In this document: one piece after another, positions 22,797-44,452 of the stretch | Layout: each line of letters begins with the position of its first letter | Position numbering within the stretch: position 1 is the stretch's first letter | From: Eledone cirrhosa | Taxonomy: Eukaryota | Reading direction: 5' to 3' | Assembly: GCA_964016885.1 (NCBI GenBank) | Contig: OZ024759.1 | Span: 31,992,001-32,056,000 of the forward strand | Length of the DNA: 64,000 nt | Translations under genes and position numbers: made by a program | The notes under the pieces: generated by a model | Seen by the model: the letters and a program-made list of their open reading frames with translations, nothing else | Databases searched by the model: none | Told to the model about the DNA's origin: nothing

Positions 22797-23003
22797 TAGG
22801 AAAAGGTATGACCCCGCCGGCAGAGCTCAAGCCGTTTCGACGGCTATTTCTGGACTGTTATCGCCGTCCAGAAATAGCCGTCGAAACGGCTTGAACTCTG
22901 CCGTCGGGGTCATACTTTTTCCTATTTCCCACTCTACTACCCTTAGTATTGAGTACTCTGGTGCGGTATGGTCCATCTGGTTCCTTACCACAAATCCTTT
23001 GAT
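22797..23003. mobile_element. Family B palindromic insert
   Basis: Arms 22797-22855 and 22866-22924, 10-nt spacer, 3' tail to 23003. Confidence 0.85.
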
Positions 23004-23147
23004 ACATATATATATATATATATACACACACACACAAGGTAGATTAAATGTATGTATTAAACCTTGGTTATTCATATATATATATTTTCTATACCTTTCA
23101 TATATATATATATATATATATATATATATATATATATATATATATAT

Positions 23148-23250
23148 TTAATATAGAAAAGGCTTCTACAGGACTAGAACTGTTTCATTCGGGAGAAATC
23201 ATCAAACTCTGCTTTGTTTGTATTGACAGTATGAAGCAGAGTTTGATGAT
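23148..23250 (-). mobile_element. Family A fragment with fold-back junction
   Basis: Reverse complement of the hammerhead 3' part up to TGATGA, joined to hairpin atcatcaaactctgctt / aagcagagtttgatgat. Confidence 0.75.
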
Positions 23251-23369
23251 ATATATATATATATATATATATATACACATACATATATATATATATACAT
23301 ATACTGTATATATACACACATACATATATATATATACATATGCTGTATATATACACACATACACACACA

Positions 23370-23510
23370 TGGTACTTTATTTTATCGATCCCCGAAAGGA
23401 GGAAAAGCAAAGTTGACCTCGACCGGATTTGAACTCAGAACGTCGTATCTAGATACCCCAAAGACATATCATATTGTTCGGCGCTCTACCGATTCTGCCT
23501 CTCCACCGCC
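23370..23510 (-). mobile_element. tRNA-derived SINE
   Basis: ggtactttattttatcgatccccgaaagg..ggatttgaactcagaac. Confidence 0.75.
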
Positions 23511-23954
23511 CTCCCTGCTAATCCGTCTTCGCCGCCTCCATCCTCGTTTCGTCTTGTATAATAATACTTTCTTTATATGTACTGTCAATATTTATACATG
23601 CTATTCAACACACCACCAGGGATTACAAGGTGATGTATATTATATATACCTCATATGATATTTACATACGTGTGGCTGTGTGTGTGTGTGTGTGTGTGTG
23701 TGTGTGTGTGTGTGTGTGTGTGTCTATGTGTGTGTGTGTGTCTGTGTGTGTGTGTGTGTGTGTGTGAGAGAGAGAGGACTACTGAATATCTAGCAAAATG
23801 AAATCTCCCCACGAGTGTATTTATACATACATACATATACACACGTACGGATTTACTTGTATAATACACGCATATATACATTTACATACATATGCGCACA
23901 TAGCTCATGATATTAAACACACACATACACACACAGACAGACATATATATATAT

Positions 23955-24146
23955 ATAACGGAGGAAATGTCGTAAGGAACCAGGTGGACCATAACGCACC
24001 AAAGTACTCAATACTTAGGGTAGTAGAGTGGGTAATAGGAACCAGTAAGACCCCGACGGCTGAGCTCAAGCCGTTTCGACGGCTAATTCTCAGAATTAGC
24101 CGTCGAAACGGCTTGAGCTCAGCCGTCGGGGTCCTACTCGTTCCTA
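23955..24146. mobile_element. Family B palindromic insert
   Basis: Centre at 24091 (aattct-c-agaatt); flanked by (TA)n. Confidence 0.85.
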
Positions 24147-24194
24147 TATATATATATATATATATATATATATATATATATATATATATATATG

Positions 24195-40067: not shown

Positions 40068-40440
40068 ATAACCACATGTCCATAGTATCGGAGCTGTGAT
40101 CTCTCAATTCTGAGAAGTAGCAGCTCTATCTAGAGCAACTCTCCAGTGATTCTATCCTGAGACCTTCTAACCACATGTCCATAGTATCGTAGCTGTGATC
40201 TCTCAATTTGGAGAAGGAGCAGCTCTATCTAGAGCAACTCTTTAGCAATTCTTTCCTGAGACCTTCTAACCACATGTCCATAGTATCGGAGCTGTGATCT
40301 CTCAATTCTGAGAAGTAGCAGCTCTATCTAGAGCAACTCTTTAGCAATTCTTTCCTGAGACCTTCTAACCACATGCCCATAGTATCGGAGCTGTGATCTC
40401 TCAATTCAGAGAAGTAGCGGCTCTACCTGGAGTGACTCTC
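40068..40440. repeat. 99-bp tandem repeat, ~3.7 units
   Basis: accacatgtccatagtatcggagctgtgatctctcaatt recurs every 99 bp. Confidence 0.95.
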
Positions 40441-42074
40441 TGATCTCCGAGCTACACACTCTATCGAGTAATGTTACTCAAAAGACTAGTTTAGGGTGTT
40501 TAAATACCAAGGTACCAGCCCTGTCTGCTGTGCTACTGTGTAAATGTGCACTCATTGATGGTGGTGGTAGTAGTGTTCATCGGTGACCGAGTTTTCTGCA
40601 TAATTTACATCAAATTCTGCTGCACCCTGTGAAACTATTTCCACGTCTAAAGATTCCATCGTCTTGAATGGATGTTTTGTAATTGTACCTTGCTCTCTCT
40701 CACTGTGTGTAAGGAGGGGGTCTTTGTGTGTGTGTGTGTGGAGGGTGCCTGTGTGTGCGTGTGCGAAGGTACCTTTATCTGTGTGTGTGTGTGTGTATCT
40801 ATGTGTGTGCCTCTGTACGTTTATCTATGTATGTGTGTACGCCTTTCTCTGTGTGTCTGTGTGTTGTTGGTTTAGGGGTGTGACTTAGTGAATAATATGA
40901 AGGTGTGTGTATATATATGTCTATGTATACATATGTATGTATGTGTGTATATGTATGTACGTATGTGTATATATCTGTATGTGTGTGTATGTATATATGT
41001 ATGTGTGTATGTATGTATATGTAAGTATTCTATATCTGATTCTTTTCACTTTTATTGTATACACTTGCCAAAAAAACAAAACAATTTTTAAGATAAGTAC
41101 TATATATGTGTGTATATATATATATATATATATCTATATATATATATATATATATATATATATATACATACATATATATATATATATATATATATATCTA
41201 TATATATATATATATATATATATATATATACATACATACATAAAGAGATAGAGATATATCGATATATATATATATTTATACACTCATTTCTCTCTCTCTC
41301 TCTCTCTCTCTATATATATATATATATACATACATACATAAAGAGATAACTTTCTATTAACATAAAGAGATAGACATATATCGATATATATATTTAAACA
41401 CACATCTCTCTCTCTCTCTCTCTCTCTCTCTCTCTCTCTCTCTCTCTCTATATATATATATATATATATATATATATATATATATATATATATATATATA
41501 TATATATATATATAAATGAAAGTATAGAAATTATTGTGAACAAGAAGCCAACAGTATTCCATGATATATAAGTGACTATAATGTCAAAATGGAAAATAGT
41601 TAACGTAAGATGTGGGAAAATAATTCAAACTCAATTAGAAAAAAAATCAAGACAGAGATTTTATCCACAGATTTTGATAAATCCAGGGTAAGGGCAATAT
41701 ATATATGTATATATATTGTGTATATTTATATATACATACCCGCCTCCCTTATATATATATATATATATTATAATGAAATGACAGGAGGCTGGACTTGTGT
41801 AAATCCTTGAAAGGTTTATATATATTTATATATATATATATATAGTGTATATTTATATATACATACCCACCTGCCGTATATATATATATATATATATATA
41901 TATATATATATATATATATATATATATATATTATTTGCGTGTGGTGGGGTGAACGCCTGTGAAGTTATGTTTCTTTATTAACGCCCTCACGTGAATATTC
42001 GAACGTGCTTGCGCGTTCGAAAATCGATAATACACTGCACGTACGATTTACGTAAGTACATATTATGAGAGAGG

Positions 42075-43190
42075 ATGGTGGTTGTGGTGGAGTGGTGGTG
42101 GTGGTGGTGGTGTAGGTGTTGATGTAGTGGTGGTGGTGGTGGTGTTGATGTAGTGGTGGTGGTGGTGGTGGTGGTGTTGATGTAGTGGTGGTGGTGGTGG
42201 TGGTGTTGATGTAGTGATGGTGGTGGTGGTGGTGGTGGTGGTGTTGATGTAGTGGTGGTGGTGGTGGTGGTGTTGATGTGGTGGTGGTGGTGGTGGTGGT
42301 GGTATTGATGTAGTGGTGGTGGTGGTGGTGGTGGTGGTGGTGTTGATGTGGTGGTGGTGGTGGTGGTGGTGGTGTTGATGTAGTGGTGGTGGTGGTGGTG
42401 GTGGTGTTGATGTAGTGGTGGTGGTGGTGGTGGTGTTGATGTAGTGGTGGTGGTGGTGGTGGTGGTGTTGATGTGGTGGTGGTGGTGGTGGTGGTGGTGT
42501 TGATGTAGTGGTGGTGGTGGTGGTGGTGTTGATGTAGTGGTGGTGGTGGTGGTGGTGTTGATGTGGTGGTGGTGGTGGTGGTGGTGGTATTGATGTAGTG
42601 GTGGTGGTGGTGGTGGTGGTGGTGTTGATGTAGTGGTGGTGGTGGTGTTGATGTAGTGGTGGTGGTGGTGGTGGTGGTGTTGATGTAGTGGTGGTGGTGG
42701 TGGTGGTGGTGGTGTTGATGTGGTGGTGGTGGTGGTGGTGGTGGTGTTGATGTAGTGGTGGTGGTGGTGGTGGTGTTGATGTAGTGGTGGTGGTGGTGGT
42801 GGTGGTGGTGTTGATGTAGTGGTGGTGGTGGTGGTGGTGTTGATGTGGTGGTGGTGGTTGTGTTGTAGGTGTTGATGGTGGTGGTTGTGGTGGTTGTTTG
42901 GTGGTGGTGGTGGTGGTCGTGGCAGCGGTGTTTGTGATGGTGGTGGTGGTTGTTTGGTGGTGGTGGTGGTGGTGGCAGCGGTGTTTGTGATGGTGGTGGT
43001 GGTGGTTGTTTGGTGGTGGTGGTGGTGGTGGCAGCGGTGTTTGCGATGGTGGTGCTGTGTGATGTGATGGTGGTGGTGGCAGCGGTGTTTGTGATGATGG
43101 TGGTGGTGGTGGTTGTTTGGTGGTGGTGGTGGTGGTGGTGGCAGCGGTGTTTGTGATGGTGGTGGTGGTGGTGTGATGATGGTGGTGAGA
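42075..43190. repeat. (GTG)n array punctuated by ttgatgta
   Basis: Directly visible. Confidence 0.95.
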
Positions 43191-43759
43191 AAGGAAAGGA
43201 GCCGATCATTTGATCAGACCCAAACCAAAGGAAACAATGTCTCCATTGGTCTTTCCAGATATAATTAATACGAATATAATCAAGAGTTTAATGAGAATTA
43301 AACATTTTATTTGTTTTACGTACGTTTCACCAAGTGTAGAAATTAACAAAAGATAGGAAATATATAGGACACACTTGACGCACAGACACACACACACACA
43401 TATATATTTATATATACATATATACACACACTCACAGACATGCACACCCACACATATTTATATATACATATATACACACACTCACAGACATGTACACCCA
43501 CACATACACACACATATATTTATATATATATACACACATTCACAGACATATATATATGTGTTATAAAGGATATTTAACTTCGTGTGTTGGGTGCGTGGCG
43601 CTCCCATAAGTACGCCTTACAACATACGTCAGTAAAGGCTCTTTGTCTATGTAACTATCTATAACTATGTATTTACATGTATACACACATACATATACAC
43701 ATATACACATACATACATATATATCCTATCATAATCCCTTCCACACCTTCATGGTGGTG

Positions 43760-44248
43760 TAGTCAGTGACTAAACCGGCAACCCCACCAAGCTTCCTTGG
43801 TGAGGAGGGTGATTTTGGACACCCTGCGAGATGAAAAACAAGACTCGTCAAAGGGAAGAGGAACTCAGGAGAGTCAACGACCATCCAATAAAGATTTCTT
43901 GTTTTTGTGGAGCGAGAGACCCCTAGTCTTCATTAAGACATCTCCATAGGAGAAGGTCACCTCTGATGTAAAACCTGCGACTTCGTTTGCATCCAATGAC
44001 GTAGACCAGTTCTAGTTTTGAGGTAAATGCATTTGATGTTCAGAGAGTGGGACTGGCCCCGTGCAAAGCCTTTCCTCACTTAAAAAAGCTTCAAGTACAG
44101 GCACTGCTTGATATGTGATATTTATGCTGGCCATAGGAAAGTCCCTAGCATGACTAAAAAGCCATGTCCATGATGCTGGAGGATCAAGGGATGTACATGG
44201 TGAAGTATCAAGGGATGGCATTACTAGAAATTGAGTTGCAGCTATCAT
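43760..44248 (+). mobile_element. Family L diverged copy
   Basis: Colinear with 21552-22103 (gactaaac.ggcaacc.caccaag.tt.cttggtgaggagggtga..; gagagtgggactgg). Confidence 0.7.
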
Positions 44249-44264
44249 GTATATATATATATAT

Positions 44265-44452
44265 ATAACGAAGGAAATGTGGTAAGGAACCAGGTGGACC
44301 ATAACGCACCAAAGTACTCAATACTTAGGGTAGTAGAGTGGGTAGTAGGAACCAGTAAGACCCCGACGGCTGAGCTCAAGCCGTTTCGACGGCTAATTCT
44401 AGTCCAGAATTAGCCGTCGAAACGGCTTGAGCTCAGCCGTCGGGGTCCTACT
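44265..44452. mobile_element. Family B palindromic insert
   Basis: Arms separated by agtcc (44401-44405). Confidence 0.85.

Follow-up and report, generated by a model that had tools for sequence, protein, structure and literature searches.

Why do copies of a repeat that carries a hammerhead ribozyme break at almost the same place inside that ribozyme? The question is raised by repeat family B in 64,000 nucleotides (nt) of the Eledone cirrhosa genome (assembly GCA_964016885.1, contig OZ024759.1, positions 31,992,001 to 32,056,000 of the forward strand), the stretch analysed here and referred to as the window. It is AT-rich, animal-type sequence with many microsatellites, in which a motif scan and self-comparison revealed several repeat families with hammerhead cores. 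A 29-nt core word of family B was matched 13 times at up to three mismatches, and not once in 100 shuffles. Most family B copies were found to end within a zone of 12 bases in helix II of the predicted ribozyme.

The break zone of family B

Positions relative to the ribozyme are counted from the G of the hammerhead GAAA in the read-through copy (position 0, window position 28193, minus strand), and arm 5′ ends were placed by an exact walk against this copy. It extends approximately 400 nt upstream and is the sole family B copy in the window to do so; an earlier note on this DNA, which gave its limits as 28071-28595, was right in this respect. The same note had listed the seven loci named below by a single number, but the ninth locus was missed.

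28074..28590, minus strand: read-through copy with approximately 330 nt of C/T-rich upstream sequence, a complete type I hammerhead and a 77-nt tail; (TA)n on both sides
2479..2539, plus strand: locus 2479, short arm alone, 5′ end −18; divergent subfamily, inside (TA)n
22796..23002: locus 22860, palindrome; short arm 22796-22856 (minus), end −18; long arm 22866-23002 (plus), end −17
23958..24147: locus 24091, palindrome; long arm 23958-24090 (minus), end −13; short arm 24091-24147 (plus), end −14; arms differ at +29 and +34
25698..25829, plus strand: locus 25697, long arm alone, 5′ end −12; inside (TA)n
28671..28884: locus 28739, palindrome; short arm 28671-28736 (minus), end −23; long arm 28743-28884 (plus), end −22
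30452..30570: ninth locus, head to head; tail-only arm 30452-30535 (minus), from +36; short arm 30538-30570 (plus), +12 to +42
37193..37388: locus 37252, palindrome; short arm 37193-37253 (minus), end −18; long arm 37253-37388 (plus), end −16
44268..44452: locus 44403, palindrome; long arm 44268-44400 (minus), end −13; short arm 44400-44452 (plus), end −19/−18, its 3′ end approximately 7 nt early; arms differ at +29
28205..28216, minus strand: break zone (−12 to −23), made up of the internal loop of stem II and the 3′ strand of its distal sub-hairpin

The 5′ ends of all 12 arms at the seven named loci lie in the break zone, as had been claimed for a narrow part of the stem II 3′ strand, and the single-arm copies 2479 and 25697 end there without inversion. 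Since the ninth locus breaks elsewhere, the count is seven of nine loci and 12 of 15 arms. In simulations, the probability that at least seven of nine loci break within 12 nt was 4e-5 for 140 available positions and 1e-5 for 200, while no such case occurred in 200,000 trials for 440. The upstream limit is hard at −23 and the ends scatter downstream only; none of the 12 falls in −1 to −11, a range that includes the GC-rich lower part of stem II. Any post-synthesis trimming would shift ends downstream, which places the true stop no further downstream than the ends seen here.

The ribozyme itself is a prediction from the fold of the read-through copy:

28166..28259, minus strand: predicted type I hammerhead
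28259-28255, 28254-28248, 28247-28194 and 28193-28190, minus strand: stem I 5′ strand, core UUGAGAA, stem II and GAAA
28190-28172 and 28170-28166, minus strand: stem III with palindromic loop and stem I 3′ strand, with the predicted cut after 28171

Stem I pairs −66 to −62 with +23 to +27, and the lower part of stem II pairs −54 to −46 with −1 to −8. Above it lie an internal loop and a distal AU-rich hairpin (−34 to −27 with −14 to −22), the duplex of which amounts to approximately −5 kcal/mol. The breaks are thus within helix II, as stated earlier, but in the internal loop and the distal sub-hairpin and not in the catalytic lower stem (−1 to −8). With 54 nt and −9.3 kcal/mol, this helix II is the longest in the window. 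Stem III has 6 bp and a palindromic loop, and a GUC cleavage triplet is present. All three helices, the core UUGAGAA/GAAA and the triplet were found together in one complete copy. The assignment rests on motif and pairing in this copy, because the fold is no more stable than shuffles (whole-stretch z −0.30) and Rfam gave no match at gathering score in the window, and the 89 weak matches in 27700–30100 did not include a hammerhead family. No end peak was seen at the predicted cut site among the displayed rows (six of seven), which, as these are DNA reads, has weak bearing. The core UUGAGAA is a U3·A8 variant, and U3 is kept in most reads of the public run X12 at that base (177 of 212 and 115 of 138). 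Such a variant has been described for the Cercyon elements of Schistosoma, which are Penelope-like elements (PLEs; PMC4209133). The 5′ half of the ribozyme is gone from the broken copies, in agreement with the earlier note, although the half removed carries UUGAGAA and not the CUGANGA named there.

The five spacers between the palindrome arms (tgttatcgcc, c, gcagact, c and agtcc) were read exactly as reported before. Compared to the read-through copy, three of the five junctions (24091, 37252 and 44403) are blunt or overlap by one letter, while those of 22860 and 28739 carry inserts of 9 and 6 extra letters, respectively, which supports the claim that head-to-head arms were joined end to end. 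Out of 153 flank comparisons, one scored above 15 (score 46), and this pair consists of two separate adjacent copies of another hammerhead family. Because the flanks are unrelated, the clustering does not stem from segmental duplication, which was ruled out, and with all junctions different the insertions can be regarded as independent. The arm at 25697 is preceded by one additional G, possibly a substitution; presumably, it could also be a copied RNA cap.

Depth along 28074–28590 was taken from one read mapping of the public runs X1, X5 and X8 (contigs) and X12 (raw reads). X5 and X8 belong to one study, X1 carries another organism label, and runs with a small word share (X2–X4 and X10) were left out, as were the other public runs that were not mapped. 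Across 28200–28217 (bin 28182–28199 compared to bin 28218–28235), contig depth dropped 14-fold in X5 (2.43M to 0.169M), 23-fold in X8 (9571 to 415) and 8-fold in X1 (424 to 52), and copies reaching upstream form a small minority of the depth. Upstream of the zone, X5 depth is flat (0.15–0.22M from −25 to −96); therefore, breaks are not spread across all positions that would destroy the core. Inactivation, put forward in the earlier note, does follow from the loss of the core half, which is real in the broken copies, but it is a consequence and not a demonstrated purpose. Selection for ribozyme loss was rejected, since depth shows no decay between −25 and the core and nothing shows selection.

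A 33-fold depth drop in X12 was discarded because the end peaks of this run sit on AATT words (five of six displayed: 28204, 28219, 28260, 28263 and 28316; the sixth, 28215, is unexplained). We take these peaks to be restriction cuts of a restriction-site-associated DNA library, and the one at 28204 (7055 of 8947 molecules) was accordingly rejected as support. Loose ends at 28201 belong to an apparent third subfamily with a different helix II sequence and low agreement. In X8 their consensus becomes (TA)n approximately 13 letters on, near −21 (agreement 0.58, six contigs), which hints at the same boundary in that subfamily. Opposite-strand joints were found in public reads at 28157 and 28112, and three of the five read joints listed connect a tail arm to an inverted arm, as at the ninth locus. 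Metagenome loci (none in a first scan, four in a second) had 56–63% GC and 20–23 matched nt and were dismissed as chance.

Proposed run-off at an internal RNA start and its rivals

Family B copies end at two fixed 3′ positions:

28074..28153, minus strand: internal end at approximately +41 (28151-28153) and tail end at +119 (28074)

Both run into (TA)n, with loose (TA)n ends at 28151 and 28077 in four of four public runs. TA runs adjoin all nine loci, and an inverted, 5′-truncated head-to-head partner is present in six of them. Published Penelope-like insertions are recognised by inverted 5′-truncated pseudo-long terminal repeats (pLTRs), an optional tail and integration into (TA)n (PMC8557442, PMC3846280). 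As judged from sequence, the family B copies look like ends of endonuclease-positive (EN+) PLEs, and a PLE is their putative parent. None of the nine loci shows the direct tandem of partial-tandem pLTRs; all are stumps, and no full-length element was present among them.

Our preferred reading, to which we give a probability of roughly 0.45, is that complementary DNAs (cDNAs), initiated from primers on the two strands of the target, run off an RNA at its 5′ end, which would probably lie inside helix II, and are then joined end to end. The ends, targets, junctions, discordant alleles and the depth cliff are direct observations, whereas the enzyme, the RNA start and the joining are what we infer from them. 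Insertion occurred into (TA)n with two fixed 3′ ends (+41 and +119) and head-to-head arms. The enzyme would nick both strands and prime at two internal sites, as suggested by the anole PLE enzyme, which in vitro cuts and extends both strands and starts at two internal sites bounding the tail (PMC11167929). In the same experiments uncut RNA serves as template and 5′-shortened templates give shorter products (PMC11167929). A transcript from near −22 would have the segment from GAAA to the tail at its 5′ end but lack the core half, so that this repeat could not cut itself. Internal priming on it would yield run-off cDNAs of 55–65 nt and 130–140 nt, which may lose 0–11 nt by trimming before they are end-joined. 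A pair of these cDNAs, one on each strand, would give the palindromes and a single one 2479 or 25697; the rare read-through copies would arise where priming occurs on a repeat that has the complete ribozyme upstream. A candidate promoter brackets the zone:

28212..28238, minus strand: TATA-like TTTAAATA at 28238-28231 (−45) and initiator-like TCATTT at 28217-28212 (−24 to −19), candidate transcription start

Both labels refer to what we take to be the consensus motifs, and words of the two kinds have background rates of 9% (TATA-like) and 2% (initiator-like). The Penelope transcript starts inside the upstream pLTR (PMC2377424), and a rotifer pLTR contains TATA plus initiator motifs (PMC3846280).

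Two templates are indicated by position +29, a common polymorphism of the family (by subtraction, approximately 37% U among X12 first-mate-plus reads). The base here is U in the long arm and C in the short arm of both 24091 and 44403. Arms discordant at this position mean that two templates fed one insertion, which the fold-back of a single cDNA does not give.

Several observations weigh against this reading. The promoter motifs were noticed post hoc, and the TATA-like TTTAAATA has one mismatch. No downstream promoter element was found by eye at the expected spacing. A DNA-kind search of public runs returned none recorded as RNA that contains the stretch. None of the five read joints listed is a palindromic junction in the zone, and the depth cliff comes partly from subfamilies with a different helix II, as divergence lowers depth. 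No Pfam match to reverse transcriptase or GIY-YIG was obtained in 88 scanned frames out of 150 candidates, including four over the upstream part of the read-through copy. A variant at −6 is found in both arms of 28739 and in no other copy of the window, as self-priming or conversion would predict. That 22860 has two arms of the divergent subfamily (87-89% identity to the others) likewise counts against two templates. Such concordant arms could still be reconciled with two templates if both came from a single source locus, or if conversion followed. The break zone coincides exactly with the 3′ strand of the distal hairpin, as an enzyme stalling there would predict. In D. virilis Penelope, transcription starts approximately 120 nt upstream of the ribozyme and not inside it. 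A perfect TATA box at −55 of the family C copy 392, approximately 30 nt before the ends of that family's copies, was not counted as support, because the reverse complement of this segment ends like the family C tail and may be an inverted tail arm.

A wider proposal, which we consider doubtful, is that transcription begins within the element's own ribozyme, so that the 5′ repeat, lacking the catalytic half, would be uncuttable and the 3′ repeat would keep the whole ribozyme, and that a retrovirus-like strong-stop cDNA, made by internal priming on the 5′ repeat, builds the inverted pLTR. If this were true, two strong-stop cDNAs would give mini-palindromes and one joined to a second, opposite-strand cDNA would give an inverted pLTR. 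Penelope stumps would in that case preserve a fossil record of transcription starts in their junctions, and the construction of PLE inverted repeats would be explained.

Rather unlikely, in our estimate, is that helix II of a longer template makes the enzyme stall or dissociate, be it by the hairpin, a tertiary contact or a bound protein, or that the cDNA folds back and primes itself, with the ends then joined. Stalling at stem II was the cause given in the earlier note and was not supported: hairpin stalling is the weaker reading because the breaks avoid the GC-rich lower stem and neighbouring families cross equally stable stems. Hairpins do pause retroviral reverse transcriptase, but invasion and stalling are placed at the hairpin base (PMC3187697), where no family B arm ends, and the enzyme would have to pass stem I, stem III and lower stem II before stopping at a weak distal duplex. 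Helix II of families D, E, I and J ranges from −4.5 to −11.6 kcal/mol, and nine of their 11 arms read through. The search that yielded these families required a complete core and thus guarantees each of them one read-through copy; once these seeds are dropped, the count is five of seven. That stalling is retained is due to the match between the zone and the distal hairpin 3′ strand, with the breaks ending at the apical loop, and to three arms of other families that end in or at helix II (50366, 36283 and 62087); the exceptional length of helix II in family B and the −6 variant at 28739 point the same way, the latter also to self-priming. Junction palindromes of PLEs have been interpreted as self-priming (PMC3846280), whereas in family B the 1-nt spacers are too short for natural loops, no spacer holds the reference loop, and the arms of two of the five palindromes are discordant at +29.

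Quite unlikely appears a short, non-autonomous master cut at approximately −23, single-armed or palindromic and amplified like a short interspersed nuclear element (SINE), the core-less RNA of which escapes self-cleavage and wins as template. The long arms of the main subfamily are indeed 95-98.5% alike, copies reaching upstream are minor in depth, and the long arms of 24091 and 44403 have the same end (−13) and agree in both alleles, the two loci differing by four central letters. However, the divergent subfamily (2479 and 22860) and, apparently, the third one with loose ends at 28201 end in the same zone, so that several masters would need the same cut, and all five junctions differ.

We regard it as very unlikely that the end is set by RNA processing and not by transcription start, be it through nuclease cleavage of loop II, the branch point of a lariat, or splicing to an acceptor at TTTTCATTTAG or at the CAG that follows. 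The zone contains a pyrimidine tract and two AG words, with eight of 12 ends (at −19, −18, −17, −13 and −12) on or one base beside them; PLE pLTRs carry introns, one of which ends at helix I in D. virilis (PMC4209133), and branch points pause reverse transcriptase (PMC5399748). Against this, the junctions have no common upstream exon sequence, both arms of 28739 retain letters of the would-be intron, and no joint that skips onward from the zone is among the read joints listed. Most improbable is that the insertions began as longer palindromes whose centres later disappeared through cruciform processing, which would suit the differing junctions and the reading of 24091 as 44403 minus four central letters but leaves the common upstream limit and the single-arm copies unexplained, with arms of only approximately 60 bp.

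Other repeats in the window

Other hammerhead families appear to have boundaries of their own. Two copies of family D (1191-1352 and 29773-29976) begin at −99 and −102, approximately 60 nt upstream of the core. These starts lie within 3 nt of each other and upstream of the core, so each family seems to have its own boundary, independent of stem II, which speaks for the run-off reading. Within the second copy, 29773-29862 is a palindrome with an inverted arm stopping before the ribozyme. Family C (core CUGAUGA; 386-441, 19241-19405, 23156-23248, 24232-24366 and 61960-62135) has a two-arm head-to-head layout, with an apparent short arm joined to a tail fragment at 23156-23248. Its ends lie at approximately −25, −22, −18, −15, −3 and 0, for the most part where the core has its outer edge. 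CUGAUGA is kept in three of these arms, and most family C copies retain it, in line with ribozyme loss being a mere consequence in family B. Most arms of family E (4480-4770, 32340-32490, 50185-50540 and 54415-54592) start close to a small upstream hairpin, at a distance of 93-125 nt upstream of GAAA, and several are joined to tail-only arms. Further hammerhead-core repeats are families F (20020-20133, 27780-28021 and 52198-52427), G (44475-44707), I (36283-36334 and 55193-55300) and J (37818-38061); the palindrome at 37832-38061 carries a complete core in each arm, and its centre is repeated in tandem. A short word, TTGAGTRC or TCGAGTGC, is common to the tails of the otherwise unalike families B, C, D and E (for example, 28127-28130 on the minus strand, 24314, 1099, 4700 and 50471) and is a candidate enzyme-binding signal.

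Two long head-to-head palindromes (36573-36921 and 54660-55145; arms of approximately 170 and 240 bp), in the arms of which no hammerhead core was found, are probably tail or upstream parts of similar elements. A dispersed family of SINE-like size has at least nine truncated copies and no hammerhead core match:

15788-16102, 17917-18008, 23371-23443, 25320-25601, 30066-30187, 33208-33369, 37477-37731, 38265-38464 and 59845-60021: copies of the SINE-sized family

Two 258-bp copies (4085-4342 and 21844-22101) are 96% identical, with a weak C2H2 zinc-finger match below the Pfam cut-off. Minisatellite arrays are found at 10463-11918, 12292-13070 and 26176-26463 (units of 57, 47 and 57 bp, respectively).

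Comparison with known systems

The insertion architecture of family B is already known; the sharp boundary inside the ribozyme would be the new detail. In the literature searched (on PLEs, hammerheads and junctions, with few subscription journals), we found nothing that limits 5′ ends to some dozen bases within helix II or that explains inverted pLTRs by run-off. How PLE inverted and tandem repeats are built is stated as an open question (PMC8557442, PMC2377424). A high-copy family with arms ending in one 12-base zone and with discordant alleles allows run-off from the RNA 5′ end, self-priming and stalling at the hairpin to be tested directly against each other; what is gained is mechanistic detail and no new system.

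LINE-1 twin priming uses primers on opposite strands, and retroviral strong-stop cDNA arises by run-off at the RNA 5′ end. The ninth locus has the non-overlapping layout of twin priming, whereas the fully overlapping arms of five family B loci would need two templates or strand displacement.

Like the animal non-LTR retrozymes (bioRxiv 10.64898/2026.07.22.740005), family B is non-coding, has a type I hammerhead and a proposed PLE origin. Retrozymes are head-to-tail tandems with whole ribozymes, in contrast to the dispersed head-to-head stumps with half a ribozyme described here, and no head-to-tail array of whole-hammerhead units was found in the window. With the minimal PLE hammerheads (PMC4209133) family B shares type I topology, the U3-A8 covariant core, the G10.1-C11.1 pair and the palindromic loop 3, but it differs in its full 6-bp helix III and its 54-nt helix II with a second hairpin.

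The anole element PAc (Poseidon, Anolis carolinensis; PMC11167929) is similar in that reverse transcription starts at two sites downstream of the hammerhead, both strands are extended and uncut RNA is the template, in line with family B arms crossing the predicted cut site. The PAc open reading frame begins at stem II, whereas the read-through copy has no start codon opening a frame there, and clustered genomic 5′ ends are not described for PAc in the parts of this source that were consulted. EN+ PLE insertions (PMC8557442, PMC3846280) have the inverted arms, the one-arm tail, the AT-rich microsatellite targets and the palindromic junctions in common with family B. They differ from it in that family B has no open reading frame between the arms and a tail of 77 nt instead of 30-40, in that its allele-discordant arms point to two templates and not to self-priming, and in that both of its arms stop in one 12-nt zone inside the ribozyme.

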